Below are positions 33,091-54,900 of a DNA stretch of 64,000 bases, one piece after another. The DNA is from Macrostomum hystrix (Eukaryota > Animalia > Platyhelminthes), in contig CATNEN010000038.1 in NCBI GenBank assembly GCA_950097015.1, positions 10,850,001-10,914,000 of the forward strand, given 5' to 3'. The notes under the pieces were generated by a model. It did not search any database, had not been told where the DNA came from, and worked only from the letters and a program-made list of their open reading frames with translations. Within the stretch, counting starts at the first letter, position 1. Each line of letters begins with the position of its first letter. The position numbers were made by a program, and so were the translations under genes.

Positions 33091-34612
33091 ATGCGTGAAA
33101 TAGTACACATTCAAGCCGGCCAGTGCGGAAATCAAATCGGCGCCAAGGTAAGAGATTGCATAACCAAATATCCCTGCATTAGAAACATGTCAAATCGTGT
33201 CAATATATAACGCAAAAATACAATCTAGACTGTACTCCGCCACCCTGACAGTTCTGGGAGGTGATCTCCGATGAGCATTGCATCGACCCCACTGGCACCT
33301 ACCACGGCGACTCGGATCTGCAGCTCGAGCGCATCTCCGTCTACTTCTCCGAGGCCACCGGAGGAAAGTACGTCCCTAGAGCCGTGCTGGTTGACCTGGA
33401 GCCCGGCACAATGGAAAGCGTCCGTGCCAGCGCGTTCGGCATGCTGTTCCAGCCCGATAACTTTGTGTTTGGTAGGAGCGGTGCCGGAAACAACTGGGCC
33501 AAGGGCTACTACACTGAGGGCGCCGAGATTGTCGATAAGGTGATGGACGTCGTCAGGAAGGAGTGCGAAGGCTGCGACTGCCTCCAGGGCTTCCAGCTCT
33601 GTCACTCTCTAGGCGGCGGCACCGGCTCCGGCTTTGGCTCGCTGATGCTCAGCAAAATACGGGAGGAGTACCCGGACCGCATCATCGAGTCCTTCTCGGT
33701 GGTACCATCGCCCAAGGTTTGTCCAGTTAGTATTTTGTTGAAGTTAACACGGACCTGCATATTTACCGCGACAGAGATACCGTTTACACGTGGTTTCAGG
33801 TATCAGATACTGTGGTGGAGCCCTACAACTGCATGCTGGCAATGCACCAGCTGGTGGATAACACTGACGAGACCTTCTGCATCGACAATGAGGCTCTCTA
33901 CTACATCAGCTTCCACACTCTGAAGCTGTCTACCCCGAGCTACAGCGACCTGAACCACCTGGTGAGCGCGGCAATGTCCGGCGTCACCACCTGCCTGCGC
34001 TTCCCCGGCCAGCTAAACGCCGACCTGCGCAAACTGGCCGTGAACATGGTGCCCTTCCCCCGCCTGCACTTCTTCATGCCCGGCTTCGCACCGCTGATGG
34101 CTCGCGGCAGCAGCTCCTACAAGCAGGTGAACGTGGCCGAGCTCACCTTGCAGATGTTCGACGCCAAGAACATGATGGCGGCCTGCGACCCCAAGCACGG
34201 CCGCTACCTGACCGTGGCTGCCATCTTCCGAGGGCGCATGTCCACCAAGGAGGTCGAGGAGCAGATGCTCAACCTGCAGAACAAGAACAGCTCCTACTTT
34301 GTGGAGTGGATTCCCAACAACATCAAGACTGCGGTGTGCGACATTCCACCACGCGGCCTGAAGATGTCCGTCACGTTCATCGGCAACTCCACCTCCATCC
34401 AGGAGCTGTTCAAGCGAGTCTCCGAACAATTCAGCTCAATGTTCAAGCGGAAAGCCTTTTTACATTGGTACACAAACGAAGGCATGGACGATCACGAGTT
34501 TATGGAGGCTGAGTCCAACGTCAACGACCTGGTGTCCGAGATGCAGCAGTACCAGGACGCCACCGCCGATGATGAGGGCGAGTACGAGGAGGAAGAGGAG
34601 GAGCTGGAGTGA
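33091..34612 (+). CDS. TUBB: Beta-tubulin (divergent isotype). Exons 33091-33147, 33252-33716, 33800-34612 (444 aa).
   Basis: [53 protein letters not shown] and an acidic tail. Introns are canonical and phase 0. Confidence 0.98.
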
Positions 34613-36793
34613 TTAGCGCCTTGCCCGTCATTTTCCCCATTTTTGCGTGATTCGCTAGTACGAGTTTGTCAGACATGAAACTGGCATGATTAGTCTTTCA
34701 TTTCTGTCTGTAAATTCACTGCGGCATTTAAATACACTGGTATCATTCTTAGAATACCTAGCAGGGATTGTAACAATAGCTTATCAATTGCTATTTCACT
34801 GATGGTCGCAATCAAATTTGTGCCTCGTGAATTTTCAGAATTCAGAATTCTCAGAAATTTTTCTGGGTACAAATTAATACAGATTTGAGCTGTGTTTGTA
34901 ATTCTGCATTCTTCTTCAATTTTTATCGCAATCGAAGCAAAAATTCAGAATATAGCCTGTAGAATCGTGACAGACAAGCGGGCTGCTTTATGAATCTTAA
35001 ATTGTAGAGTGCAGAATTACGGTACTTTTTATTTTAACCAATCATGCGCTAACTACTCTACTCATCCGCTTAGTAGTATTTTTAGAACATGCGAATTAGA
35101 AAACATACAAGTACAACATGTGATTCATTTTACTAAAAATGGAGAATCGAATCAATCAAAAATCGTGTGACTACTATTAATAGTATCCAATCAATTTTTA
35201 TGTCATAAGCAACCAGCGATCCCACCAATCATGTTACCCAAAATCAATCAAAAGGTCAAGAAAGCGATAATCCATCATTTTTGCGCTTCTACTAGTTTAG
35301 TTGTAAAAAAGTCTAACCTCTCAAGTTGTCAAGCGTTGACCCAGACTTTTTGACACCATTTTGACACCTGTCATTTGAACGCACTCATCGAACCCGAGAG
35401 GGTCCGATTCTCTATGAATACAAGAGCTCCGAAGCGAGCCCAGATTCAGAGTCTCGCCGAGACGAGCAGAGTCTCGCAGAAAAGAGAAAACGGAGAGTCT
35501 GAAGTGGATCGGACTCCAGGTCCAAGACTTGTGGTAAGAGTTCCTTGAATTAACCTAATTAATTAATTATTAATTAGTAAAGCTTCTTGAGCTAAGTTAA
35601 ACCTCTCCGAGTAATCGTTAAACCAACGATTACAGCGTAATCACAGACGTGTGATTACATTGAATATATTACAAAGGGTGAGCGCCAGACTCGTGGTAAA
35701 ACCTACCAGGGCTGGTAAGAAGGAACACACTCCACAAGTGACTATTGGTTAACCGACATCAACGATAAATCAGAATCAGGAAGATACCACACCTGATTAC
35801 TATTGGCCCAGTGTAACTGCAACCGAGACGAGGAGAATAGATCAAATTCTCTTGCATTCAAACGATCCGGGTACCTGAAAGACAACCAGAAACCAAGCGC
35901 ATCAAAGCACTCGAAGCCGGCCGCAAACAAACAAAGAGGACCAGACAGAGAACCACAAAACCAAAGAAGGTAAGAACTAAAACTTCTGCTAAATTAGTAT
36001 TAATTACTGGGGCACCCAGCAGTTGTTGGAAGTGATAAATTCCTAAAAGAGAAACAAGGAACTTATCAAAATTTTATTTGACACGAGAACAATAAATGGG
36101 AAACAATGGAAAGACACTAGGGACCAGAATGTTTCCTCGAACAGCTAAGCCAGATAGAGTATAAAATCTGGTTCGTTTGTCGAGTTTAGCCTTTACCGTG
36201 ATTTCCCCAGCCCACCGGAATGATCCTTGTTTCGTTCTCTTCACCTTGCCCAGCGACTTGACCTGTTCTTGACCTTGAGTAAACCCTTGAGATGAATTGC
36301 TTCATAACAGCTACGTAGCCCAATAAACACAGCATTTAGCTTTAAAGTTTTAAACAACTCAGAGCCTACATGGCTGCTCTCAGACTCTAAAAGAACTTTC
36401 ATGTACTTTTACCTAATGGTCCTGTAATATACAGTAATATATAAGAGAGTAAATGAATCCTGGATTCTGTATGTACGCGTTCATACGAGTACAAGCTGAA
36501 ATAATCCAAGTATTTGTGAGCAATACACGGCGAGAATGTTGGGCTAAACGTACATGACAGGTTAATTGCCGGCTATTTCGCTGTGGACAAATCAATCAAA
36601 GGTCTAGCAAACCAGGTGTACGTGTACGGTGGTGTTGCTATCAAAGGGGCCATTCATGAAGACTGGGCAGTTGTTAATTTTTTTAAACAGGAATAAAAAG
36701 TGAGCCTTATCAGTAGTTTAAACAGTAGTATATATCCGTCTTCAAGTCTTATTTTCGTTCTTCATTTGCGCTGAATCAACTCAGTCAGTTGTT

Positions 36794-37190
36794 TTAGTTT
36801 TTGAAAAGACCGAATATTTTTCCACGCTTGACGTTTGTGGAAAGCGTCCTCAATTCAGCGCACGAACTTCTCCCAGCTGGCGTCGGTCTCGATGGCCGCG
36901 CCTCTACAGCTGCATCGCCGTGCAGGATCTGCCGGCAGGCGCGCGAGTTCCCGTTGAACAGGGCGGCCTTACAAGCGGGGTTCAAGGCACAGAGGGAAAC
37001 GCAGTGAATTCTGCCGGCGACGACCACCTCGCTGCCGGGGCAGTAGTAAGGAGCAGCCTGAGGAGTCTCTGGCTATAGGCATGACGGCTTTGTTGAAGCT
37101 GCTCACGGCTCCGCTGTAGGACTGCAGCCCGGACTCGCAGATGAAGCCGTAGATCGAAGTGCACACTCCATCCACCAGCATCAGCTTGGT
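36794..37190 (-). pseudogene. Fragment of a C-type-lectin + PAN/apple domain gene
   Basis: LVDGVCTSIYGFICE (end of a CTL domain), then a frameshift into CVSLCALNPACKAALFNGNSRAC (PAN-like). The 5' side is occupied by retroelements. Confidence 0.5.
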
Positions 37191-37211
37191 GGATACATGC
37201 GAGGATCTTCT

Positions 37212-38594
37212 ATGAAGATAAGACAGTCGCTGGTTGTTCCGCTGAATGGCCTGCCAGAAAGCCACATGGCGTCCATGGCGCTGTTTGATGGCATCTCGCC
37301 AGCGTCCGTGCTCTGCCAGCCACGACGGGACGCACCGACCTTCCGGCAGCATCTCGATGACCTCCAGGGCCCGCAAGCCTGGGGCAACATTGAGCAGCAA
37401 CATGCCGCGTTCTGCAGCGACATCCTTGATGTCACCCGCAGCAGGCTCCTCAACCGGGCGTTTGAATACGCCAATCGCCGACAGGAGCCGGACATCAACC
37501 CACTGCTTCCCTTAGCAGGGAACGACTATCGGCGTCCCTTACGAGGCTGATGGCATCGCGTGGCCCTGGAGCTCACCGAGGCTGCCCACCTTCAGGCCCT
37601 TCAACGTGAGCCCTACCCGCCACGGACTCCCGAGATCGGCTGCCTGACTGACAACCCAAGGATTGATTTCAACTAGACGCTCACCGCCTTGTGCGCCTGC
37701 AACCTCCCGATGAGCATCCATCGCGACCGGGGGCTGAATTTCCTTGCCGGTCTCCAACCGACGGATATAGACATCTGGACCGACGGGTCCGTCCGGGACG
37801 GCACCTCGGACGACTGGGGCGCTGCCGTCATCACCACCCGCCTGTGGGGCACCACCATCGCCGCTCCCGCCGGTCGGGTCGCATGCTCCTTCCGGGCGGA
37901 GATCTGCGCTATCCGGGCGGCCCTCGATTACATCAGACAGCTGACGCCGGACCACGGTGCGTCGATTCGCATCCACAGCGACTCGCTGGCGGCGCTGACA
38001 GCCCTCGAGCACGGCCCCTGCGAACAACGCTCGGCGGATAGCATCCTATGCTGGGTAACGCTGAGCGCCATTCAACACAGCTGCGAGTTCGTCTGGGTCC
38101 CGGCGCACTACGATATCCCGGGAAATGAGATGGCTGACCGCCGTGCCAACCACGCTCGCCTGGAACGCCAGCAGGACAGGCCAATCTCACTTCTAGCTGC
38201 CAAGGCGGCCCTCCGAGAGCCGCCCTCGACTTCGGGGTGCTGGGGCCGAGCTGGCGCAATACCCCAGGGCACCTCAACCGGGCCGAGACGGTCGCCATCA
38301 ACCAGCTCAGGGCGGGATGCTCTACGCTGGCTTCTTCCACCCGCCACTGCCTCGGCCTCACCGACGACCCGTTCTGCCGCGACTGTGGCAAGCTCGATAC
38401 GGAAGATCACATCCTCTTCGAGTGCCCACGCGGCGGCGTTATCCGTGTTCGCTACGCCAACTGGGACGAGGCTCTGAAACATCCTGAACAGATCCTCTCC
38501 CTTTTGCGCAGACTGGGGCGTCTCTGAGCGTCCCTCTACCTCCACCTCCACCTGCCTGAGCAGCTCTGATGACGGTTGAATCAGAAGAAGAAGA
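37212..38594 (+). mobile_element. 5'-truncated non-LTR retrotransposon with RNase H and CCHC knuckle (I-group/Ingi-like)
   Basis: IWTDGS..SFRAEICAI..IHSDS..WVPAHYDIPGNEMAD (RNase H). CRDCGKLDTEDHILFECP follows after a frameshift. (GAA)n tail. 10-bp TSD AGGATCTTCT at 37202-37211 and 38595-38604. Confidence 0.88.
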
Positions 38595-38800
38595 AGGATC
38601 TTCTGCACCGGCTGCGAGCAGTACGACTCTATGCGGATGACGTGGCCTCCGAGCTGGAATCGCCGACGGCGCAACAGGTCACTAGGACGGGACAGGTCGG
38701 CGCGGCGTTGGTGACTCGCTGATCGCCGATCTTGAACACAGTGCGCAGCAGGCCAGCGTACGCCGTGTGCTCAAGCTTCAGTCACTGCCATGCGCTCAAG
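38595..38800 (-). mobile_element. RTE-like LINE C-terminal fragment
   Basis: LSRPSDLLRRRRFQLGGHVIR resembles the RTE-clade RRRL.W.GHV.R motif. Confidence 0.55.
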
Positions 38801-39179
38801 CGTCATTCTTGAGAAAATGCAATCGGGTGCTAGAAATATCATGGTGCAGTGGGACTTAGAGAATGCATAAAGTTCTGAAAATTTGACCATAGACTAGTAA
38901 CACATAGTGCTTTTAGAGCCCGAATTTTCAATTGATTTGATAAGTCAAAGGCAACATTGTCAAAAATCAGTCTTTAGGATAATGTAATCGTCTATGGTTA
39001 AAGCATGAGCACATTCCATTTATTTCTTCACTTAAACTTCAGGATAATGATTTCGAACTCGGGATAATGGATGCCTATTTTTAGAACAAAACAGCAAACA
39101 CCAACAACAAAAGAGCGCTATGGAAAGTTAATAGTGCAGTATCAATATGGCGCAATTGTCAACATAGTGCCCAAGACCA

Positions 39180-40724
39180 TTACAGATTGCAATTGTTGAA
39201 AGTGCAGTTGTTCATAATAAAGATACTCCGACCGTTCATCTGACGACCATCAGACACGCTCACTGCTTCTTGCACGATGGAGCTCTGGATGCTGATGTCA
39301 GCAGGCATTGTTACTTGACCGTGGATCGCGGCGCTTTGTCCCATGTTCAACGCACGCGACACTGCATCGCTGCATTTTTGCAGGGACTTGTCCCGTTTAA
39401 CTGCCAGGTAGCGCCGGACCGTGCTCTCGGACTTTTGACCCGTGATAGCCATGATCTCGCTCATCGAATGCCCAGCCGATTCCAGGTCACACACTCTGGT
39501 AACTCTAGAACAATTGAGCGATTGAACTGTAAATTAGACTCAATCAGACACAAGTTGAAAACATCACATGCACTTCCCCGACCAACTGACTCACCGAATG
39601 CTGTGATTGGTGTATTCCTTAGACAGCTTCGCTTTTTTGCTCAGCGCTTTCATGAAAGTCCTCAGGTAATTTATTCCTCGTTTCTGCTTCGAGCAAAATC
39701 GTCTGGTGCCTCCTGCATTCTTCAGTGGCCTGGGAAACAGTGAGTCGTTCTTCGTCTCCGTTGGTAATATAGCCATGTAGTCGTCCACAATTCCAACATC
39801 GTAGATTCTCGCCTGCTTTACGTCGATGTCACGCTTGGCTCGATTGGGATCGGCAGACTTGTTTTTGGAATTCAGTACAGGCAATGCGTAGTACGGTCTT
39901 CCATCCGAGTCTTCGCGCTTCACCAACCACTTCTTGGATTCAATCGACTCCAGATGTTCCCTTCCTCGTTCTCCTAGGCCGTACATAACGCGAAATAGAA
40001 ACTCATCCTGAGTGGTCTCTGCACTTGATCTGTCGAAATACGTCCGTAGCTTCTCCATATCACCCTCCTCGATTGGCGGATATGATCGAACCTGACCGCC
40101 GGAGTTGTGCCATTCCCTGACTTTCATTCGGAGCATTCTATTCGCTAGGACGAATTCCTCACCATCGATAATGTTGATCGTTAATCCAGCCACCATAGTC
40201 AGAAAGCGCTGTATCCCGGCGCGGATGCACACAAGACTTGCAGGCGAGTATGGACCGCCATCATGGCGACGTAATTGGTAGTAGTAATACCTAAGAAACT
40301 CACACATCTCAACACGACTCAATTCATGAACAGCAGCTCCATGTTCCCGAAGGAACTGCACAAAACTGTTACCATGAGCAATCATCTGCTCACGCGTCTT
40401 GGTTGGTAGGCTCACTATTTCATCTTTCGTCATTGCCTCTTGCATATCCAAAGGAACTAGTTTCGGCTCAGTTTCATTCTCTCCATCCTCTTCAGCTGCA
40501 GCATCATCCTCGGCCGGTAGCAGAGGCAAATCATCAGATTGATCGGTATCAGTATCACCGCTCTCAATAAAGTGCAAGAAGTTCAAGAAGTCTTCGTTAT
40601 CCTTCATGTCCTTCTGAGATGTGGAAAGTCTTGAGATCCAATTGAGTTCGCTACTAGATACGTTGGCTAAACTTTCGACAGGCAGATTGCCCCAGTTAAT
40701 CGGATATGACGTCCGGTTCTCCAT
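39180..40724 (-). CDS. Tyrosine recombinase, Crypton/DUF3504 (ZMYM/KCTD1-related) type. Exons 40724-39595 and 39504-39180 (484 aa).
   Basis: YSPASLVCIRAGIQRFL, GERGRE (catalytic R), SKN (K), YTNHSIR (HxxR, split by a phase-2 GT-AG intron), ITGQKS..VRRY (Y nucleophile) and C-terminal NNCTFNNC. No stops after splicing. Confidence 0.88.
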
Positions 40725-40924
40725 GGTCAAGCGATTGTAGCTATTTACGTTTTATTCTCTCCTTTCTCTCTCTTCCTTTCCACCCTCTTAAGCCCCGGCC
40801 TGTTTGCAACTTCGTTGTCTATGGCCCAAACTCCAGTAAACCACGTCAGTCTTTTTGTCTGTCTCTCCTCGGTAACCCCTCTCTCCTTTCGATGCCCTTT
40901 TTGTCTATGGCCCCACTGAAATTC

Positions 40925-41047
40925 GACAATGCGGTTATTCGTAAGTGAGACTTTAGGATAATAGTCCTATGCTCACTCGTGCGCTGCGCGCACTCATGAG
41001 CCGGACTATTATCCTAAAGTCTCACTTACGAATAACATTCCATTGTC
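40925..41047. repeat. Long hairpin/palindrome with perfect 34-bp arms (40934-40967, 41003-41036)
   Basis: GTTATTCGTAAGTGAGACTTTAGGATAATAGTCC...GGACTATTATCCTAAAGTCTCACTTACGAATAAC. Inner GCTCA/TGAGC and GTGCGC/GCGCAC stems, outer GACAATG/CATTGTC. Confidence 0.95.
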
Positions 41048-41073
41048 TGCATACTCCAAATGATTGCATTTAG

Positions 41074-43256
41074 GTCGAACGCACTGCTACAGCACACATT
41101 CCTTCAGGCTCCGGTTGTGCTGGATGACGACCATGAAGGAGGCATCCGTCTGAAGAGGAGCTGGCAGGATGCCATTCTGCCAGCCTTTTCCAGGCAGATC
41201 CCCTGCGCACTGTGCATCAGGCGGAGCCGAATCGATTCCCGGGGCGTTGTCTCGGCAGATGTATACTGTCGGCACGAGGACTGCCGCGTTCCGTTCAAGC
41301 TGGAATCTGTGTGGAGGCTTTTGTGGAGTCTGAGAGCAATGGCACCGTTGCACCCACACCCATGTACTGAGTCCAGGCCGCTGCGCGGTGATCGACGGCA
41401 AGAGTTAGCACAGCGAGTTAGGCAATCGAGTGCGTACCGGGTGACAGCGCAGCTGGCCGCCGAGTCTATGGACGCGGAAGTTCCAACTAGTTGCGCTCTA
41501 CGGGTGGCTGCTGCGCGGCAGAGGCTGCATCACCTGTGCTGGAGTTGTCCAGCTCCCAAGTGGAATTTGTTCCTCCATATGTGCGAGGAATTTTTCTATC
41601 CTGGCCGGGCCAGTCCGAGCCCACCTATGTGACACTGTGGCACGACCAGGGCATCGAACTGCTGAGGACCCTTCACCGATGGCGAATGCCTATCCGTCTT
41701 GGAGTGGATAGCACTGGCGCTCCAATCCACCGCATCAGGGGTGCTGAGGCAAAGCCACTTTACTACCATGCACTGGTTCTCATTCATCCGGTAAGCTTTG
41801 CGCACAAAGATGAGACACAGATGCCAAAACTATAGATTTGGTTGCCACAATCAGAAAAAATTATTGTTTTGCATAAATGTATATCGCAACCCACAGAAAC
41901 CAGGTGAGCCCTGTGTTGCCGTGCTAGAGTTACTGTCCTCCTCCCAGACGGCCGTGACGCTTCGCATCGTTCTTGATGGCTGGTTCACAGAGGTGCAGAA
42001 GAGGGTCTCTGGGATCAGCGTCGAGCAGATTGTGATGGATTTCAATCTTCCTACTCTCCGAGCGGCAACTCATACTTTTCACGGGCTTGATCTGGTGGGA
42101 TACCTGCAGCTCTGCTGGCGCATACTGCACCACGAATACCCGGCAGAGATGCTGCGTCGCTTCACCGCCATCGGTCTAGGTCGCAGTCACGTGGTCAATG
42201 AAGTCCGACGGTGGCGCGAGGTGGCTGCAGCATCTCATAGCGTCCGGGTCTTTTGGCTGTGCAGCCTAGGCGCCATCATTCGTTGTCAAGATCTTCAGGA
42301 GCAGCTGCGTCTGGTGCGGGCTCTTTTCTCCGTTTTGTTGGTTGAGAGACTTGACGTTCTGCATCAGCATTTTGGAACGGAGCTGGAGACGCTCAACAGT
42401 GCTGTAACCGGTCAGGAGATGGTCGAGGAGAATCCGGTGGAGCCAGAGGCCGGAGAGCCATCAGGCGATTGTGCTGCTGTCTGGGACATCACCCTGCGTC
42501 GAAGTTCGCCGTTTTGGGTTGCCTGCAGTCGGCTTCAATGGGAGGTGTCAGACAGGATCGCACAGCTTGAGATGACTACGCAGGCACCTTTCAACATCAC
42601 TGACGTGACTAGGCAGGCGACCAACCAGCTGCGGTGCCCGGCTTTGGCGGAGAGGCTGCTTGACAGTCTTCTTGTGTGGCTGCCCTGTCGGCTTGACGCA
42701 CGAGGCCGCCAACAAGGTTTATGTCGTGAACAAGAGAAGAAAGAAGGCACCCACGGCTTACACTTAACCAAGGAGCATTCCCCCACCCATCTCCGGAGCG
42801 CGACAACGAGGCATAGTACCTCTACGCAACCATGGCCAAATCACTGGAGTTCCCTATGATGGGCGGCGTGTGACAGTGACAGTCTCAAATGGATGCTCTG
42901 TGGACTGCTTCCTGCAGGCACTCAGCTACGCGTACAGGAATCGGCCTGCATTTCATGAGGCCACTCGAGGTGCCCCGGACTCTTGTCAACCTTTGCGGGA
43001 CTTCCTGGAGCATATGGATGCAGCAGCCACGGAGAAGGAGGCAGCATGCGCTAGGGCTCGTTTACTCCTACGCACGCCAGCTGTCTGGGCTGCTGGTAAC
43101 TGCCTGCTGCCAGCACCGAACGGCTCAGTGCGCGCCAATCTTTATGCATCTGAGGTAGACATGGCTAGCTACATTCTGGGACCTGCCATCGCTTTTGACC
43201 GACTGTCATTGTCGTCATTGTCATTGTCGGCTCTAAGGTCGTCGAGCACAGCGTAG
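41074..43256 (+). pseudogene. Decayed NOF/MULE-like DDE transposase with C-terminal cysteine-protease-like segment
   Basis: LGVDSTG..PLYYHALV, intron 41791-41896, then VLELLS..IVMDFN..GLGRSH (CxxH position), LRRSSPF, NQLRCPAL..LLVWLP, then SNGCSVDCFLQAL. Frameshifts at ~41530 and ~42860. No clear third catalytic Glu. Confidence 0.65.
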
Positions 43257-44686
43257 CTTGACGGGAGGATATCACACCGCGCATGTGGAGCTCCTTCGAG
43301 GTGATCTAAAAAACACCAGCCACAAGCGACTTGTTGACTAAGAGATAATGTGCATTATCTTTAGGAGTAGGTCAACTTATAATTTACGATTTAAATTTAA
43401 AAAAATCTGACACTTGTCACACACTCATACAAATACACATACTCACAAGGTGCGCGTTCGTGTGAAGTAGCACGAGTAACTCGATACAGTGAAACGATTA
43501 GATTAGAGGACAACTTTTCTGACTGGGTGCTAAGGTCCACGAGGTCTTTGCGGTGTTATTGAAAGGTCCTTGCTATGTGCCCGCACGAATTTTTTAAAAA
43601 CTATTTCATTCTAAACAGTGAGTGACCGTGTTACACGTGCTTTTTGCTATAAACTGCAAGCAAAGAAATCTAGGTTAATAAAAATGTACGCACCTTCAAA
43701 GTAACGTCTTGTTATAAATATAATTGCGTCTCAAAATATTTCAAAGGAGAATCCGTTTTTCTTCTATGAAACCACCCAATCAGGTATTTTTCATCAATTT
43801 TGTGCAGCGCTTTTCTTCTCGACGACAGCTTGCCCTTGATCAATGTTTTTATACTCGTTTTGAATTCGGGCCTCTAATTTATTAATTAATAATATAAAGG
43901 TCCTGAACCCAAGGCTGAGGCTATAATGTTATCCAATTGCAACTGATGTGTATGCCTGTCAAACTATAAATCTACTCTAATTTACTCGATGGCAATTAAA
44001 GCCTTAAACTGATGTCTCATGTCTTCACTCACCCTTTCGACGCCTACCCTGTTGCACGCCTAAATAAACTAATTAGTTTAAAAACAAAGAAAAAAGTTAA
44101 AAAATATATTTGCCTGTTTTGAAAAAGATTTATTTATATTAGCTAAATTCCCTAAATAGGCCTAGTTGCGGACTTGCAGCAACATGTTGTGATGTTGATG
44201 TTCAGTTATTTACTAGGCCCCTTAGGCCTTTGCTTAAAATCACTGTGAAATCTTATTTCATTTTACACTCACATTTATTTCCCATATTTTAGCTGTAAAA
44301 TAAAATCTGCCTTCTCTTGAGTCTGGACTATGTAGCAGCCTAAACACTACAATGGACCCAAATGGATCATGGCATCATACATAAGAAATTAAATATATTA
44401 TAATTTCCATAATGTATTTAAATATTTTGGTATGATGGTATTGTCTTATTGTTATTATAATATTTTAGCAGTGTAAAAATCTAAGATGAGTAATTATAAA
44501 TATGTTGGTAAACTTACTAATTTAGTCATTAGCTAGTTAAAGAAAACTTGAAATATTTTTGCTATGGTACATTTAATTAATAGTTTCTAACTTCTAGTTT
44601 TTAGATACATTTAGAATAGAATAGGCCTATAGAATAGCTTGCTCTCTGGTATAATAGTATCATTTGTATACTAGTATAAATAAAAA

Positions 44687-45990
44687 CGAAGAGCTTGCGT
44701 GCACAGCTGCCGTTTGCCCAAAGCCATACTTGTGTGCACGGCTGCTGTTCGCCCAAAGCCATACTTGCGTGCACGGCTGCCGTTCGCCCAAAGCCATACT
44801 TGTGTGCACGGTCAACATGCAGACATGTGACCATCTGCACTACATGCTTGACTTACTTATTAGCTCATATCACTGAAATGAGTGCATGCATATAAATGTG
44901 ATTCGAAGCACTATGTACATACATGCACCACATATCTGCTTATATTTTTGTCTTATTCCTACGTTCATAGGACAGCTATCTCGTCAGTGTGCCATGCGGA
45001 TAAGCAGGAAATTATTCCCACGGTACCGTAGGAATAAGACAAAAATAATTTCTACGGTACCGTGGGGATAAGCACTGCCTTCAGACAATTGCAAATAAGG
45101 AGAACGTGGTGAGGAGGGAGGTTGCCTCCCTCCCTTGTAGTGTATCATACATGCGCAACACCCGGCCGACCCGGCCGAACCGGCCGGGTGAAACAAGGGC
45201 CAAGCAAGGTAAGTCGCAAAAACCAATAGACCAAGCGCAAAAAAATCAAAGGGGGGACCAAGGGACAAAAAAGGAAGGCGTGAAGAAAAGGAAAAAGGGG
45301 AGAGAAAAAGAGAGCAAATGAGAGCAAACTAAGTCGTAAATAGAGCAATGAAATGAACTAAGTCGCAAATGAGAGCAAAAACTAAGTCGCACGGCCGGCT
45401 AAGATTTAGGAGGTTGCGCATGTATGTAGTGTATGCTACAAGCAGGGACCACTAGATGGTGAATTTGGAGTTGAATGAATAAATCATAAACATATGCATA
45501 TCATGCATCGACTTTCCGTACACGTATACACGCACTGTTCATACACAAACACTGCCACAAAGTCAGGGACGTGACAAATCCTTTGAAGCAAATTTTCCTG
45601 GGTTTTTGGGAATGCATATGCTCATGTACATTACGTGTATGTTACACTACGCACACACATCACATACATTACATGTACATGTATAAGTAGTACGTGACTG
45701 CGACTCTGATCTCAAAGAACTACATTGTACACTTCACTTTGCATGCAATTGGAATTGAACAAGCATATCATTTGAGATATGTGGTGCATGTATGTACATA
45801 GTGCTTCGAATCACATTTATATGCATGCACTCATTTCAGTGATACAAGCTAATAAGTAAGTCAAGCATGTAGTGCAGATGGTCACATGTCTGCATGTTGA
45901 CCGTGCACACAAGTATGGCTTTGAGTGAACGGCTGCCGTGCATGCAAGTATGGCTTTGGGCGAACGGCAGCCGTGCATGCAAGCTCTTCG
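44687..45990. mobile_element. Non-autonomous foldback/MULE-type element with ~215-250-bp TIRs
   Basis: CGAAGAGCTTGC..CACCACATATCT is the reverse complement of AGATATGTGGTG..GCAAGCTCTTCG. 9-bp flanks AAATAAAAA / AAATTAAAA (1 mismatch). Confidence 0.85.
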
Positions 45991-46274
45991 AAATTAAAAA
46001 GCTAGCAACATTTTTATATATGTTTGCATGTATATAATCAAACCTTAGTATTATTATCAAAAATGTCACTTTATTACTGTTAAATTTGGTTTTTACTGAT
46101 AGTAATTTATTGAGTTTACTGTGTAGATTTCAGTTTTTTTAATTGTGGTAGAAGCTTATTTTGTAACTTATCTAGATTAAAAGTGTACTTGTTAATTGTT
46201 AATTTCAGATATTGCTTAGAAAGACAACTAAGTGTCAAATTCCTACCTGAGAAAATTATAAAAAACTCATTAGC

Positions 46275-47219
46275 ATGCAACCAGCCTCTCCAAATGCCAA
46301 TGGCAGTCCAGACAGAGACAAGCAACAGCAGCAGCAGCATGAGCGCGTGGCCATCCTTGATGCCGGCGCTCAATTCGGCAAAGTGATTGATCGACGAATT
46401 CGTGAATTATGCGTACTAAGCGAACTGTTGCCAATGGAGACTTCTGTGGACAGACTCAAATCTGGCGGTTATCGAGCCATTGTGGTGTCCGGCGGCCCTG
46501 GCTCCGTGAATGACCAGGATGCGCCGGCCTATGATCAGAGGCTGTTTGACTGCGGCTTGCCCGTGCTGGGCATCTGCTACGGCATGCAACTGCTTAACAA
46601 GTAGGCTTTTTGAAGCTTAGAATATGGAGGGATTGCCTTGAGTAATGGATTCCCTTAAATTTTGTATATTTTGTGAGTCCCTGAAACAAGAGATTGTGGC
46701 AATCCCATTTAATAAGGGATTCTTGGGGTTTCCAAAAAACAAGAGACACCGCGTGAGAGATTATAATGAACAATAGCTTCGAGGGAATCTTCAATGAGGG
46801 TATTGTGACGGAATCCCACATTAATAAATAATATATAAAGTCTAACCCAACCCCTCAGACACCTTGGCGGCGAAGTGTCCCGGGCCGATTCGCGCGAAGA
46901 CGGCCAGTTCCCGGTGCAGCTGGAGCTGTCCTGTCGCCTGTTCCGCGGTATGCAGCCCACCGAGGAGGCCCTCCTAACCCACGGCGATCACGTGAGTCGC
47001 GTTGCGCCCAGTCTTGATATTGTCGGTCGCTCCGACGGCATGGTGGTTGCCATAGCAACCAAGGAGTCCTCAGGTCGTCGCCTCTACGGTGTTCAATTTC
47101 ATCCGGAGGTGGACCTGACGCCGAATGGTGGCTGCGTGTTTCGCAACTTTCTTTTCGATATCGCTGGTCTGAAGGGCGATTATAAGATGGACGAACGCGA
47201 AGGCTCCTGCCTCAAGTGA
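46275..47219 (+). CDS. GMPS: Duplicated GMP synthase exons 1-2 (glutamine amidotransferase domain). Exons 46275-46600 and 46859-47215.
   Basis: ILDAGAQ, SGGPGSV, PVLGICYGMQ, GVQFHPEV. Apparently identical to the downstream copy. Confidence 0.75.
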
Positions 47220-47355
47220 GTTAGCTATACCTAACCTAGTGTCATTCTCCCAGATCCTCATTTTCCCAGATCCTCAGATAGAGTCTCTCATTCTCTTAGA
47301 TCCTACTTTTGAGTCTGTAATTCTTCCAGATCCTCATTTTGAGTCTTCCATTTTG

Positions 47356-50300
47356 AAGAAGGCACCCACGGCTTACACTTAACCAAGGAGCATTCCCCCA
47401 CCCATCTCCGGAGCGCGACAACGAGGCATAGTACCTCTACGCAACCATGGCCAAATCACTGGAGTTCCCTATGATGGGCGGCGTGTGACAGTGACAGTCT
47501 CAAATGGATGCTCTGTGGACTGCTTCCTTCCTACGCGTACAGGAATCGGCCTGCATTTCATGAGGCCACTCGAGGTGCCCCGGACTCTTGTCAACCTTTG
47601 CGGGACTTCCTGGAGCATATGGATGCAGCAGCCACGGAGAAGGAGGCAGCATGCGCTAGGGCTCGTTTACTCCTACGCACGCCAGCTGTCTGGGCTGCTG
47701 GTAACTGCCTGCTGCCAGCACCGAACGGCTCAGTGCGCGCCAATCTTTATGCATCTGAGGTAGACATGGCTAGCTACATTCTGGGACCTGCCATCGCTTT
47801 TGACCGACTGTCATTGTCGTCATTGTCATTGTCGGCTCTAAGGTCGTCGAGCACAGCGTAGCTTGACGGGAGGATATCACACCGCGCATGTGGAGCTCCT
47901 TCGAGGTGATCTAAAAAACACCAGCCACAAGCGACTTGTTGACTAAGAGATAATGTGCATTATCTTTAGGAGTAGGTCAACTTATAATTTACGATTTAAA
48001 TTTAAAAAAATCTGACACTTGTCACACACTCATACAAATACACATACTCACAAGGTGCGCGTTCGTGTGAAGTAGCACGAGTAACTCGATACAGTGAAAC
48101 GATTAGATTAGAGGACAACTTTTCTGACTGGGTGCTAAGGTCCACGAGGTCTTTGCGGTGTTATTGAAAGGTCCTTGCTATGTGCCCGCACGAATTTTTT
48201 AAAAACTATTTCATTCTAAACAGTGAGTGACCGTGTTACACGTGCTTTTTGCTATAAACTGCAAGCAAAGAAATCTAGGTTAATAAAAATGTACGCACCT
48301 TCAAAGTAACGTCTTGTTATAAATATAATTGCGTCTCAAAATATTTCAAAGGAGAATCCGTTTTTCTTCTATGAAACCACCCAATCAGGTATTTTTCATC
48401 AATTTTGTGCAGCGCTTTTCTTCTCGACGACAGCTTGCCCTTGATCAATGTTTTTATACTCGTTTTGAATTCGGGCCTCTAATTTATTAATTAATAATAT
48501 AAAGGTCCTGAACCCAAGGCTGAGGCTATAATGTTATCCAATTGCAACTGATGTGTATGCCTGTCAAACTATAAATCTACTCTAATTTACTCGATGGCAA
48601 TTAAAGCCTTAAACTGATGTCTCATGTCTTCACTCACCCTTTCGACGCCTACCCTGTTGCACGCCTAAATAAACTAATTAGTTTAAAAACAAAGAAAAAA
48701 GTTAAAAAATATATTTGCCTGTTTTGAAAAAGATTTATTTATATTAGCTAAATTCCCTAAATAGGCCTAGTTGCGGACTTGCAGCAACATGTTGTGATGT
48801 TGATGTTCAGTTATTTACTAGGCCCCTTAGGCCTTTGCTTAAAATCACTGTGAAATCTTATTTCATTTTACACTCACATTTATTTCCCATATTTTAGCTG
48901 TAAAATAAAATCTGCCTTCTCTTGAGTCTGGACTATGTAGCAGCCTAAACACTACAATGGACCCAAATGGATCATGGCATCATACATAAGAAATTAAATA
49001 TATTATAATTTCCATAATGTATTTAAATATTTTGGTATGATGGTATTGTCTTATTGTTATTATAATATTTTAGCAGTGTAAAAATCTAAGATGAGTAATT
49101 ATAAATATGTTGGTAAACTTACTAATTTAGTCATTAGCTAGTTAAAGAAAACTTGAAATATTTTTGCTATGGTACATTTAATTAATAGTTTCTAACTTCT
49201 AGTTTTTAGATACATTTAGAATAGAATAGGCCTATAGAATAGCTTGCTCTCTGGTATAATAGTATCATTTGTATACTAGTATAAATAAAAACGAAGAGCT
49301 TGCGTGCACAGCTGCCGTTTGCCCAAAGCCATACTTGTGTGCACGGCTGCTGTTCGCCCAAAGCCATACTTGCGTGCACGGCTGCCGTTCGCCCAAAGCC
49401 ATACTTGTGTGCACGGTCAACATGCAGACATGTGACCATCTGCACTACATGCTTGACTTACTTATTAGCTCATATCACTGAAATGAGTGCATGCATATAA
49501 ATGTGATTCGAAGCACTATGTACATACATGCACCACATATCTGCTTATATTTTTGTCTTATTCCTACGTTCATAGGACAGCTATCTCGTCAGTGTGCCAT
49601 GCGGATAAGCAGGAAATTATTCCCACGGTACCGTAGGAATAAGACAAAAATAATTTCTACGGTACCGTGGGGATAAGCACTGCCTTCAGACAATTGCAAA
49701 TAAGGAGAACGTGGTGAGGAGGGAGGTTGCCTCCCTCCCTTGTAGTGTATCATACATGCGCAACACCCGGCCGACCCGGCCGAACCGGCCGGGTGAAACA
49801 AGGGCCAAGCAAGGTAAGTCGCAAAAACCAATAGACCAAGCGCAAAAAAATCAAAGGGGGGACCAAGGGACAAAAAAGGAAGGCGTGAAGAAAAGGAAAA
49901 AGGGGAGAGAAAAAGAGAGCAAATGAGAGCAAACTAAGTCGTAAATAGAGCAATGAAATGAACTAAGTCGCAAATGAGAGCAAAAACTAAGTCGCACGGC
50001 CGGCTAAGATTTAGGAGGTTGCGCATGTATGTAGTGTATGCTACAAGCAGGGACCACTAGATGGTGAATTTGGAGTTGAATGAATAAATCATAAACATAT
50101 GCATATCATGCATCGACTTTCCGTACACGTATACACGCACTGTTCATACACAAACACTGCCACAAAGTCAGGGACGTGACAAATCCTTTGAAGCAAATTT
50201 TCCTGGGTTTTTGGGAATGCATATGCTCATGTACATTACGTGTATGTTACACTACGCACACACATCACATACATTACATGTACATGTATAAGTAGTACGT

Positions 50301-51951
50301 GACTGCGACTCTGATCTCAAAGAACTACATTGTACACTTCACTTTGCATGCAATTGGAATTGAACAAGCATATCATTTGAGATATGTGGTGCATGTATGT
50401 ACATAGTGCTTCGAATCACATTTATATGCATGCACTCATTTCAGTGATACAAGCTAATAAGTAAGTCAAGCATGTAGTGCAGATGGTCACATGTCTGCAT
50501 GTTGACCGTGCACACAAGTATGGCTTTGAGTGAACGGCTGCCGTGCATGCAAGTATGGCTTTGGGCGAACGGCAGCCGTGCATGCAAGCTCTTCGAAATT
50601 AAAAAGCTAGCAACATTTTTATATATGTTTGCATGTATATAATCAAACCTTAGTATTATTATCAAAAATGTCACTTTATTACTGTTAAATTTGGTTTTTA
50701 CTGATAGTAATTTATTGAGTTTACTGTGTAGATTTCAGTTTTTTTAATTGTGGTAGAAGCTTATTTTGTAACTTATCTAGATTAAAAGTGTACTTGTTAA
50801 TTGTTAATTTCAGATATTGCTTAGAAAGACAACTAAGTGTCAAATTCCTACCTGAGAAAATTATAAAAAACTCATTAGCATGCAACCAGCCTCTCCAAAT
50901 GCCAATGGCAGTCCAGACAGAGACAAGCAACAGCAGCAGCAGCATGAGCGCGTGGCCATCCTTGATGCCGGCGCTCAATTCGGCAAAGTGATTGATCGAC
51001 GAATTCGTGAATTATGCGTACTAAGCGAACTGTTGCCAATGGAGACTTCTGTGGACAGACTCAAATCTGGCGGTTATCGAGCCATTGTGGTGTCCGGCGG
51101 CCCTGGCTCCGTGAATGACCAGGATGCGCCGGCCTATGATCAGAGGCTGTTTGACTGCGGCTTGCCCGTGCTGGGCATCTGCTACGGCATGCAACTGCTT
51201 AACAAGTAGGCTTTTTGAAGCTTAGAATATGGAGGGATTGCCTTGAGTAATGGATTCCCTTAAATTTTGTATATTTTGTGAGTCCCTGAAACAAGAGATT
51301 GTGGCAATCCCATTTAATAAGGGATTCTTGGGGTTTCCAAAAAACAAGAGACACCGCGTGAGAGATTATAATGAACAATAGCTTCGAGGGAATCTTCAAT
51401 GAGGGTATTGTGACGGAATCCCACATTAATAAATAATATATAAAGTCTAACCCAACCCCTCAGACACCTTGGCGGCGAAGTGTCCCGGGCCGATTCGCGC
51501 GAAGACGGCCAGTTCCCGGTGCAGCTGGAGCTGTCCTGTCGCCTGTTCCGCGGTATGCAGCCCACCGAGGAGGCCCTCCTAACCCACGGCGATCACGTGA
51601 GTCGCGTTGCGCCCAGTCTTGATATTGTCGGTCGCTCCGACGGCATGGTGGTTGCCATAGCAACCAAGGAGTCCTCAGGTCGTCGCCTCTACGGTGTTCA
51701 ATTTCATCCGGAGGTGGACCTGACGCCGAATGGTGGCTGCGTGTTTCGCAACTTTCTTTTCGATATCGCTGGTCTGAAGGGCGATTATAAGATGGACGAA
51801 CGCGAAGGCTCCTGCCTCAAGTGAGTTAGCTATACCTAACCTAGTGTCATTCTCCCAGATCCTCATTTTCCCAGATCCTCAGATAGAGTCTCTCATTCTC
51901 TTAGATCCTACTTTTGAGTCTGTAATTCTTCCAGATCCTCATTTTGAGTCT
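47356..51951 (+). repeat. Segmental tandem duplication, copy 2
   Basis: See copy 1. A 9-bp filler TCCATTTTG sits at the junction. Confidence 0.97.
49292..50595. mobile_element. Second copy of the foldback/MULE-type element (carried by the duplication)
   Basis: Matches 44687-45990. Confidence 0.85.
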
Positions 51952-54900
51952 GTCACTATCGCAGATCCTCATATTCAGTCTTGAATTCTCCGAGATCCTC
52001 AGATTCAGTCTGAACTTTTCCTAGATCCTCAGATTCAGTCTGAAATTCTCAGAGATCCTCATTTGAAGTCTTTCATTTTTTCCAGATCCTCAGAAAGAGA
52101 TAGCCTGTCATACTTTTAGATCCTCAGCATGATTTCTATTAAGTTTCTCCCCACCTTCCGCCTCGCCCAATCTGCAGTTACATCCGCGAGTCCGTTCCTC
52201 CCGATTGTCGCGTGCTCATGCTTCTCAGCGGCGGCGTTGACAGCAGCACTTGCGCGGCTCTGCTAGCCAAAGCCCTCCGGCCCGACCAGATAGTGGCTGT
52301 GCACATCGACAACGGCTTCATGCGTCTGCGCGAGAGCAGCCTAGTCATTAAAAGTCTAGCAGCTCTTGGATTGCAGGTTTGGGCAGCTTAAATAATTATT
52401 GTCATTTTCTTATCACTCTACTTTCACCAGGGATCGACAAACTCCGGCCGGCGGGCCAGATGCGGCGGTCGAAGCTCCCAAATCCGGCCCGTTTTGGGAG
52501 CTTCCAACACCTATAGTATCCTGTCTCATCTCTCCCGTGTCTCATCTCTCTCTAACCTGGAGATGGAGAGTCTCATCTCTCCCGTGTCTTATCTCATCTC
52601 TGTCTCATCCCTCCCAAGTCTTATCTCTCCTGTGTCTCATCTCTCCCGTGTCTCATCCCTCCCGTGTCTCATCTCTCCCGTGTCTCATCCCTCCCGTGTA
52701 TCAACCCTCCCGTGTCTCATCCCTCCCGTGTCTCATCTCTCCCGTGTCTTATCCCTCCCGTGTCTTATCCCTCCCGTGTCTCATCTCTCCTGTGTCTCAT
52801 CTCTCCCGTGTCTCATCTCTCCCGTGTCTCATCCCTCCCGTGTCTCATCCCTCCCGTGTCTCATCCCTCCCGTGTCTCATCTCTCCCGTGTCTCATCCCT
52901 CCCGTGTCTCATCCCTCCCGTGTCTCATCTCTCCCGTGTCTCATCCCTCCCGTGTCTTATCTCTCCCGTGTCTCACCCCTCCCGTGTCTCATCCCTCCCG
53001 TGTCTTATCTCTCCCGTGTCTCATCCCTCCCGTGTCTCATCCCTCCCGTGTCTCAACCCTCCCGTGTCTCATCCCTCCCGTGTCTCATCTCTCCCGTGTC
53101 TCATCCCTCCCGTGTCTTATCTCTCCAGTGTCTCATCCTTCCCGTATCTCATCCTTCCCGTATCTCATCCCTCCTCTGTCTCATATTTCTACAGTTGAAG
53201 CGGCCCGCTTTCGTCTTTTAGGTTCTCTCCTCTCCTTACAGTTACACAATTAGTTTAAGTCATTACTTGGATTAACAAGTAGTGTATTTGAAAAAGTAAA
53301 TAGAGTACTTTTTAAACATAAAATATCCTACCCTACTAATAGTAGAGCTGCATAGAATCCAAATCTATCTAAATTTATCTCAGGTTCGCCTTGTGGACGC
53401 ATCTCTGAAGTTTCTAGCCGGATGCACCAATCAGGTGCGTCGCGTCACGGTTGGCAAGGAGACCGCAGAGCGTCGCGTACGCCTTGGCCCATTGTCAAGC
53501 GTTATTAATCCGGAGGAGAAGCGCCAGATTATTGGCGATTTGTTTATGCTGGTTGCTAAGGATGTCGTTGCCGAACTGCAGTTGGATCCCGAGAAGGTCT
53601 ACCTGGCCCAGGGCACCCTTCGACCTGACCTCATCGAGTCCGCATCCAGCATTGCCTCGCATCGAGCCGACGCCATCAAGACTCATCACAATGACACTGA
53701 TCTGGTGCGAGAATTGCGCGCCCGCGGCCGAGTCATTGAGCCATTGAAAGACTTTCACAAGGATGAGGTATGGCAAGCTTACCCAACTCATGAGTGCACA
53801 CAGGTGTGTACATGTGCCCTGACTTTCTCATCGTCAGGCAGTGTACACTCTCATTGTGCCTTGGAGATTGACCCCTTAAGGGCGTAAATTGCACGACAAG
53901 CCCCCAAGCCTTCTCTCCGCGCCTGCCCCCCGAATGAATGTGGCCTCGCCGCGGAATCGAGCTTTGGGACATTGCTCAACCGCTCTGCCATTCACCCACT
54001 TTTAGTGACCGTTTTAACATGGGATTTTTTAGTGAATTAGGGAAACTGGGTTTAGAAATGGGAAATTTTTTATGAATTTAAGAATCGGGATTTCATTAAG
54101 TTGCGGTTCTGCGATTTGGGATTTTAAACTTACAATTCATTTAATGTTTAGGGAAAATCTATGAATCGATTAAAACTCCCCAAAAATTCCCCTGCGCTTC
54201 AGGTGCGAAAAATCGCGCGGGATCTGGGCCTCCCCGAGGCGCTAGTCTCCAGGCACCCGTTTCCTGGTCCCGGCCTGGCGATTCGCGTACTCTGCGCCAA
54301 GGAGCCGCATATGGACAAGGATTTCATGGAGACAGCGGCCTGCGTGCGACTTCTCCTCGAGCTGCGCAACTCAATTGGAGGCGGCGTCGCTGGCAACGAA
54401 CGCCAGGCGCCGCAGTTGTCTCGCCTTCGTCAGCTGCTGACGCCGAACGAATTGGACCGGCTTAGCCGACTGTCGGACATTCAGGGCCACCTGCTGCCTG
54501 TGAACACCGTTGGAGTTCAGGGAGACAGGCGAACCTACTCCTACGCGGTGGCCCTGTCCAGCCCCAGTCCCGAGCCCAACTGGCCGGACCTGTTCTACGT
54601 TGCCCGCCTATTGCCCAGAGTCTGTCACAGCGTCAATCGGGTTGTGTACGCATTCGGCCCAGTCATTCAGTACCCTGTGACCGACGTCACCCAGACCCTG
54701 TTGTCTCCTCCGGTGCTGGACCAGCTGCGGCTTGCCGACGACAAGGCGCACACTGTGCTCAGGGTCTGTTGCACTTTTTACTGGCTTGTCGTTATTTAGT
54801 TTAGCATCACCAATGTGTTATGAGTGAGTGCTCACAGGTGTGTTATGATTGAGTGCTCACAGGTGTGTTATGAGTGAGTGCTCACAGGTGTGTTATGAGT

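Follow-up and report, generated by a model that had tools for sequence, protein, structure and literature searches.

Animal Cryptons have been described without terminal repeats: all eight CryptonA rows in the accessible part of Kojima and Jurka 2011 (PMC3212892) read 'n.d.', and the same part of that source leaves animal Crypton movement open as the ends could not be defined. Of the six autonomous CryptonA elements listed there, five measure 1.5-2.3 kb. The ends of the fungal Glomhoppers are called poorly conserved in the available text of PMC13465315, and CryptonF, according to the excerpt of PMC9977147, gains copies despite excising. Folded recombination sites are known from other systems. 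In attC only 3 nt are conserved, pairing reaches 9-11 nt and 2-3 bases stay outside the helix (PMC2727003, in extract), and the attP of CTX phage is a working model of a folded site in the available sections of PMC3089051 and PMC3442271. No fold-back end appears in the accessible portions of PMC9977147, PMC5753468, PMC4157794, PMC8371274 and bioRxiv 10.64898/2026.09.21.753150, and none was found described in a search of the Crypton literature at the level of its available text; Repbase, Goodwin et al. 2003 and subscription papers are outside the scope of that search and may describe one.

Here we analyse an element in a 64-kb window, by which we mean the whole stretch of Macrostomum hystrix DNA under study. 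As far as the accessible parts of PMC3212892 and PMC13465315 go, it is like CryptonA and the Glomhoppers in having one R-H-R-Y recombinase gene, no GCR1_C C-terminus, a length of about 2 kb, non-autonomous derivatives and no target-site duplication in the DDE sense. It differs from the elements described there in its exact ends, short core, 5′ hairpin and internal complement of the 3′ end, and also in a Gln at the H/W position and an intron splitting HxxR. With CryptonF, CryptonS and the Starships it shares a recombinase-driven insertion at a short target-matching core, whereas these, in the available portions of their descriptions, have other recombinase families or domains and no fold-back end was found for them; the Starships are moreover large cargo carriers. 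Integron cassettes are alike in having about 3 invariant nucleotides, a stem completed by the other end of the unit, 2-3 unpaired bases, a variable top and head-to-tail arrays. Unlike an integron, the window element has its own recombinase and presumably a promoter in each unit, no separate attI, a non-IntI enzyme and an animal host. The attP(+) of CTX phage, used by XerC/D, is similar in that inverted half-sites about 90-110 nt apart become a site only by folding of one strand; CTX however depends on host recombinases, a fixed dif target and rolling-circle single strands, in contrast to the window element with its own enzyme and no Rep. DIRS elements also have a tyrosine recombinase and an internal stretch complementary to the joined ends, but the window element lacks reverse transcriptase, RNase H, Gag and long terminal repeats and has kept an intron. 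Judging from sequence comparison, we put the probability at roughly 60% that the site on which the recombinase acts is a folded single strand, as with integron attC or CTX phage attP.

The element, its cores and its target are placed as follows.

38955-41047, minus strand: entire element of 2,093 bp, the 7-bp direct-repeat core at each end counted in (from the empty-site joint, contigs starting at 38955 and loose ends behind 41036-41048)
38955-38961, minus strand: 3′ core, GACAATG on the coding strand, of which AAT is the part invariant among relatives (from sequence, contigs and relatives)
41041-41047, minus strand: 5′ core, its portion beyond CAT(T) on the plus strand varying with the insertion site (from contigs)
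41048-42859, plus strand: target, probably a broken MULE-like transposon, the first ~120 bp of which lie left of 38955 (from Atlas matches and the empty-site contig)

An empty site is seen in a contig of run X1 that joins 38955 to 41042, and contigs in runs X2 and X10 start at 38955. The first-pass annotation had placed the left end at 38880; the empty-site joint and the contig starts in two runs move it to 38955, and 38880-38954 is target DNA. At the right end, contigs part from the window at 41044, 41046, 41047 and 41048 (twice), and others at 41036, where a changed spacer is followed by CAT or CATT. The flanks vary at seven right-end junctions besides that of the window. Counting all eight, the core matches over 7 bp in four, 6 bp in one, 4 bp in two and 3 bp in one, although these counts are biased since contigs that match further are more easily aligned to the window. 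The direct repeats at the ends are short and match the target, being 7 bp in the window copy with a 3-nt invariant core across relatives, and ordinary terminal inverted repeats are absent. A derivative deleted from 39486 to 40562 retains both ends (runs X10 and X15), and its depth in run X10 is 329 against 73 for the gene. The main contigs of run X1 differ from the window at only 2 of 1,356 and 0 of 550 positions, from which we take the family to be young. Copy number rests on contig depth, which is itself no copy number (in run X1, 421-455 inside the element against 85 in the left flank). A joint of right end to left end, as in a circle or tandem, was absent from the contigs of four runs and the loose ends examined, which is uninformative as contigs drop rare forms.

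It may be noted that the empty-site contig has G at 38955 where the window has C, and by inference also differs at 41045. Both window junctions bear the letters of the element at the positions where this contig differs, which is not expected from one clean crossover unless the contig is a diverged paralogue. It differs from the window at 41078 and beyond 22 nt upstream as well, and is likely a paralogue of the target repeat. Also in run X1, one copy has a shortened hairpin (40946-41036), a duplicate of one arm having taken the place of part of the other; this copy has a different spacer and its own flank or insertion site.

A CryptonA-type transposon with the ends as placed above is thus almost certain. 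The young, multi-copy Crypton-type tyrosine recombinase (YR) transposon that had been proposed is borne out by the empty site, the varied flanks, the deleted derivative with both ends and seven M. lignano proteins of the 96-98% type; neither a single syntenic domesticated copy nor a genome-wide occurrence of the hairpin independent of YR ORFs was seen. That the recombinase is domesticated or dead, the hairpin being an unrelated small element or chance, is very improbable. Such a reading could draw on the Gln in place of the usual His/Trp and on the several domestications of DUF3504-type genes reported in the accessible part of PMC3212892. Yet it is contradicted by the empty site, by the varied flanks, by shared ends that include the hairpin, by the near-identical copies, by the occurrence of the same Gln in the nearest relatives and by an identical layout in nine divergent relatives, and is largely refuted already. 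The traits of domesticated DUF3504 genes such as ZMYM, KCTD1 and QRICH1, namely a single fixed locus, lost catalytic residues and extra domains, were not found.

The gene of the element reads on the minus strand.

39595-40724, minus strand: exon 1, 377 codons, with core-binding and catalytic domains and the R, K and H residues (from frame and alignment, and the fold model of the relative P0010)
39505-39594, minus strand: intron of 90 nt, GT..AG, splitting the Arg codon of HxxR (from the frame, and a joint of 39504 to 39595 in run X15)
39180-39504, minus strand: exon 2, with Gln at the H/W position, the catalytic Tyr, the C-terminal tail and the stop (from frame and alignment)

The claimed 484-aa spliced ORF without stops stood up, since among four GT..AG pairs tried the 90-nt intron, spliced from 39595 to 39504, was the sole one to yield a stop-free frame. 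A contig joint omitting exactly this intron was found in run X15 and was absent from the other three runs, in agreement with the splice first proposed, where it should be kept in mind that run X15 being RNA is a guess only. The splice restores NHSIRVT, which matches intronless relatives in the alignment. Two further proteins, P0003 and P0017, end at the same HxxR Arg, which suggests the same intron there. The catalytic residues R, K, HxxR and Y, all listed in the first-pass annotation, align with those of relatives, each of R, K, H, R and Y being conserved in at least 40 of the 46 aligned proteins. Gln at the H/W position was likewise confirmed; this column of the alignment has His in 38 rows and Gln in 4, and since the nearest relatives are among the Gln rows, Gln is a trait of the clade and not decay. 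At least two more divergent M. lignano families of the recombinase are represented by P0018 and P0025, the former also with Gln at this position.

The seven nearest proteins are UniRef entries of Macrostomum lignano, of which the aligned ones are 96-98% identical, as fits a window from M. lignano or a close relative. A Pfam scan of the window family gave only sub-threshold matches to Phage_integrase and QRICH1, and DUF3504 matched neither exon 1 nor exon 2, nor the 97%-type relatives P0010 and P0002. Among more distant relatives DUF3504 did match, in 9 of 11 loci at E < 1e-5 (6 of 11 above the cut-off). The window protein falls among these DUF3504-matching relatives in a clade with 100/100 support, in a tree that was built without the named Repbase CryptonA. 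An AlphaFold model of P0010, a 98% relative (pLDDT 87.7), best matches Cre-type recombinases (Z 19.5, rmsd 4.0, 304 residues aligned), and its match to integron integrase is lower (Z 15.2). The integron integrase profile TIGR02249 matched one of the five recombinases scanned, with 15 bits against a cut-off of 265, and a PDB sequence search with the recombinase returned 0 matches. From frames and alignment, the R-H-R-Y tyrosine recombinase is the sole enzyme of the element. The 2.09 kb contain no reverse transcriptase-RNase H, no Rep and no long terminal or split repeats, only the recombinase frame.

The hairpin lies upstream of the gene, and the sequences that bear on its folding are the following.

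40934-40967, no strand: hairpin arm, 34 bp, containing one copy of the motif (from an inverted-repeat search)
41003-41036, no strand: hairpin arm, 34 bp (from an inverted-repeat search)
40968-41002, minus strand: hairpin top, an inner stem with tandem GA/GA mismatch and a GCGCAGC mini-hairpin apex (40983-40989) on the coding strand
41037-41040, minus strand: 4-nt spacer opposite 2 nt (40932-40933), giving two excess bases beside the core; it differs in other copies
40915-40931, minus strand: internal stretch at the hairpin foot, complementary to the 3′ end and core (from the fold and relatives)
38955-38971, minus strand: 3′-terminal 17 nt, which would pair with 40915-40931 after end joining (from sequence and the fold of the modelled junction)
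38972-38983, plus strand: CTTTAGGATAAT, exact copy of the hairpin-arm motif and likely an accessory recombinase-binding site
39037-39048, plus strand: variant motif copy
39058-39068, plus strand: variant motif copy

The perfect 34-bp arms noted at first are thus present, as are CTTTAGGATAAT and its two variants at the places claimed. The hairpin folds with a z of -13.9 against shuffles, and no other perfect inverted repeat with a short loop in the 64-kb window is longer; the left-end region folds no better than shuffles (z 0.07). In the DNA fold, 40925-40931 pairs with the right core beyond a 4-by-2 loop. As ten further inward bases also complement the left end, the joined ends would lengthen the hairpin, and 40915-40931 against 38955-38971 gives 14 Watson-Crick pairs of 17, with one G.T and two T/T. 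In the integrated form the extent of pairing is limited by the target sequence. The hairpin, which the first-pass annotation took for a recombination site, is plausibly part of one, but not in the usual form of inverted sites flanking a spacer of 6-8 bp. The crossover core is a short direct repeat at both ends, with its inverted partner some 110 nt inward from one of them, so that the recombination site can arise only by folding of one strand. The GGATAAT repeats, also put forward as recombination sites, look like accessory binding sites rather than crossover sites, and ACATTCCATT was indeed found at both window positions but is altered in other copies, with changes at 39016/39017 and a spacer of CAAC or CAAA, so that it is probably not an end signal. 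The pattern CTTYRGGATAAT has 4 matches in the window against 1.2 expected, and 2 of 100 shuffles reach 4, for a pattern that was derived from these same sites. We also tried GTCTATGG as a CryptonS-like terminus and rejected it, its copies not lying at element ends.

For the relatives, a locus scan of metagenomes, made with a 17-protein subset as the 46-protein alignment was too diverse, gave 42 loci, and one of genomes gave 2 more; a search of viral contigs gave no relatives. Loci L001-L014 and L043 form a 100/100 clade with the window protein, making up 29 of 39 rows (midpoint root, named Cryptons not being in the tree). L043 comes from a bacterial bin, where it is probably misbinned. These loci hold 16 elements, 11 of which have a 5′ hairpin with a G..A apex. 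In four of the remaining five the contigs start within ~210 nt of the start codon, and the fifth, L013, has a remnant with a reversed apex.

For a test of the ends we used nine relatives and the window element, with pairwise protein identities of 28-56%, leaving out L010 (of the L011 family, its contig breaking off within the gene), L007a (at 96% identity to L043) and the five elements without a whole hairpin. Every ATT at 40-65 nt past the apex was used as probe, with equal freedom for cross pairs. In 9 of 10 elements no region paired better with the hairpin-foot probe than the element's own 3′ end, which came first alone, and in one it shared first place, with own scores of 9.5-16 against a cross-pair mean of 5.9 and maximum of 11.5 (n=120); only 4 of the 120 cross pairs reached the lowest own score. 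A cruder earlier probe rule succeeded in 6 of 10. In a position-blind search for inverted matches the same ATT..AAT pairing came top in 8 of 15 loci, L013 and L014 included, which have no intact hairpin; for the window itself the top match was the 12-bp motif. Over 12 elements, pairing holds at 121 of 144 positions, and each of positions 3-9 shows 3-4 different pair types, although here positions were picked for best match, which biases a permutation test and leaves the own-versus-cross test as the fair control. L043, added after the pairing idea was formed, matches at 15 of 15. The paired letters differ between families and the layout is the same, AAT being present at both ends in 10 of 10 with a hairpin span of 94-117 nt. 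Modelled joining of the ends lowers the folding energy in 10 of 10, by 3-15 kcal/mol.

These results bear on a conventional double-stranded excision and integration, the reading nearest to that of the first-pass annotation, in which arms, motif repeats and internal complement do no more than bind the proteins of an arm-type intasome and the hairpin need not fold. The arms contain the family motif, which has three further occurrences near the 3′ end, a 7-bp core suits a recombinase overlap region and the fold is Cre-like; also clean excisions occur in CryptonF (PMC9977147) and Starships form circles (bioRxiv 10.64898/2026.09.21.753150), as stated in the accessible parts of these sources. We nevertheless regard this route as quite unlikely. 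It leaves unexplained the pairing that is kept across unrelated arm sequences, the near-constant span of 94-117 nt, the one-strand G..A apex, the GA/GA mismatches and the bulge, and the 5′ core has no adjoining inverted binding arm. A test of motif sharing was weak and modestly positive, the own value being at least 13 in 8 of 10 elements and likewise in several cross pairs (9 of 90 reached 12). By analogy with other systems, the copies of the family motif would be accessory binding sites. Accessory recombinase-binding sites are present in attI1 and Tn916.

The search pattern for the apex left the loop letters unspecified, and on the coding strand the apex nonetheless reads C-G-N(N)-A-G in 10 of 10 elements and GCGN(N)AGC in 8 of 10. 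Tandem GA/GA mismatches are found in 7 of 10, and 2-3 excess unpaired bases lie on the 5′ arm of the coding strand in 10 of 10. On the opposite strand the G..A apex loops would read TNC. Folding energy is lower for the coding strand than for its opposite in 9 of 10, by only 0.3-4.1 kcal/mol, and reversed in L008; counts of G.T pairs separate the strands weakly (8 against 4). In DNA, mini-hairpins of the GNA/GNNA type are very stable; in RNA their stability is much lower, according to the available text of PMC13037366.

A folded strand could also act otherwise. The internal complementary region of DIRS elements serves as a splint. In the same manner the folded strand here might join the ends of a released strand, or might prime second-strand synthesis, with integration through an ordinary double-stranded circle. 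The internal stretch does complement the two ends where they join, as does the DIRS internal complementary region named in the accessible part of PMC13465315, and phage and plasmid origins carry mini-hairpins that mark their primase sites (PMC13037366, in extract). We consider this unlikely, however, as neither reverse transcriptase nor Rep is encoded, the intron retained in young copies argues against an RNA step, and a splint has no need for a conserved 2-3-nt bulge beside the crossover core.

For the folded single-stranded site that we favour, the following sequence of steps may be proposed. The coding strand, exposed by replication or cruciform extrusion, would fold its 5′ hairpin from the GNA mini-hairpin apex. 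The recombinase would then pair this folded 5′ end with the double-stranded 3′ end, aided by the repeated family motif, and one strand would be exchanged at the AAT core, after which replication would free a circle and could leave a donor copy. In the circle the 3′ end would add 12-17 bp to the stem and so complete a two-armed site, the 2-3-nt bulge lying beside the core. This site would recombine with chromosomal NACAATG-like targets, and where these are the ends of other Cryptons head-to-tail arrays would result. Folding in vivo, one-strand exchange and replicative resolution are what we infer here; what we observe are the ends, the core, the signs of mobility, the splice, the non-autonomous derivatives and the self-complementarity conserved in ten divergent families. 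Several points speak against the folded-strand reading: the enzyme is Cre-like and far from the IntI profile, the energy differences between strands are small with one apex reversed (L013), the X1 copy with a rearranged hairpin looks mobile, and the footprint of the empty site is unexplained by a single crossover. The wider proposal, that a large animal Crypton clade consists of self-contained 'integron cassettes' with their own recombinase, copy-out/paste-in of one folded strand, a circle-completed site and arrays, stands at even odds in our estimate.

The rule of a hairpin plus its complement places the ends exactly and names a testable substrate. If true, a one-strand route resolved by replication would explain how Cryptons gain copies alongside excision, as noted for CryptonF in the excerpt of PMC9977147, and folded-DNA recombination, as in integrons and CTX phage, would be extended to animals and to eukaryotes; the window flatworm family would then be an intact, young example for reconstitution. 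Such a route would also be relevant to the binding targets of the ancestral ZMYM, QRICH1 and KCTD1 domains, and a small recombinase needing a target of 3-7 nt could serve as an insertion tool.

On looking at tandem arrangements, we found two whole elements head to tail in L007, and in L008 and L011 the hairpin of the next element begins exactly at the predicted 3′ AAT. The tandem units at these three loci each carry or begin their own recombinase unit, and no attI platform with promoterless cassettes was found. Judged from L043, the second L007 element begins at an AACAATG within the first, 49 nt before the true end of that element, and since the missing 49-nt piece was not found behind the second element, this junction is not a simple insertion. 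Elsewhere, L005 has a second recombinase fragment (1981-2193) in opposite orientation, tail to tail with the first. A second hairpin made from the family motif that the 5′ hairpin also contains lies just inside the 3′ end in L008 (1935-2034), L009 (1662-1699), L011 (1819-1860) and the 3′ region of L012; the window element has direct repeats near its 3′ end, where several relatives carry this second hairpin.

In the distant clade (L015-L042 and L044) no pairing of ends was detected, the long hairpins near its recombinase genes having no detectable end partner. Long hairpins downstream of recombinase genes were seen in L032/L033 (4387-4520), L035 (3978-4066), L015/L016 (4144-4278), L024, L030 and L038. 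The hairpin foot of L032, AACAAT..ATTGTT, resembles the window core; in L035 the apex is GAA and GA/GA mismatches are present. The hairpins of this clade may be ends of other or gene-less elements.

Regarding the neighbourhood, the Atlas feature matches of the target to MULE clusters are 0.90-0.92, which is a lead only; a TniQ Atlas match for 41036-41629 was set aside for its low recognition value. The split element, probably MULE-like, spans 38825-38954 and 41048-43250, and related copies free of the insertion are present in runs X1 and X3. At 36700-38600 lies a LINE-type element that is frameshifted; it has an RNase H domain (Pfam E 2.5e-11) and closes with a short GAA-repeat tail. A tandem segmental duplication at 42741-50600 has a spacing of about 4.6 kb and 98.6% identity over the 760 bp compared, each unit holding a ~1.25-kb element with 209-bp, 96% terminal inverted repeats (44729-45983 and 49334-50588). 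From their translations, we take 33249-34612 to be a beta-tubulin gene and 54152-54799 a GMP-synthase-like exon, and many minisatellite arrays lie around both.
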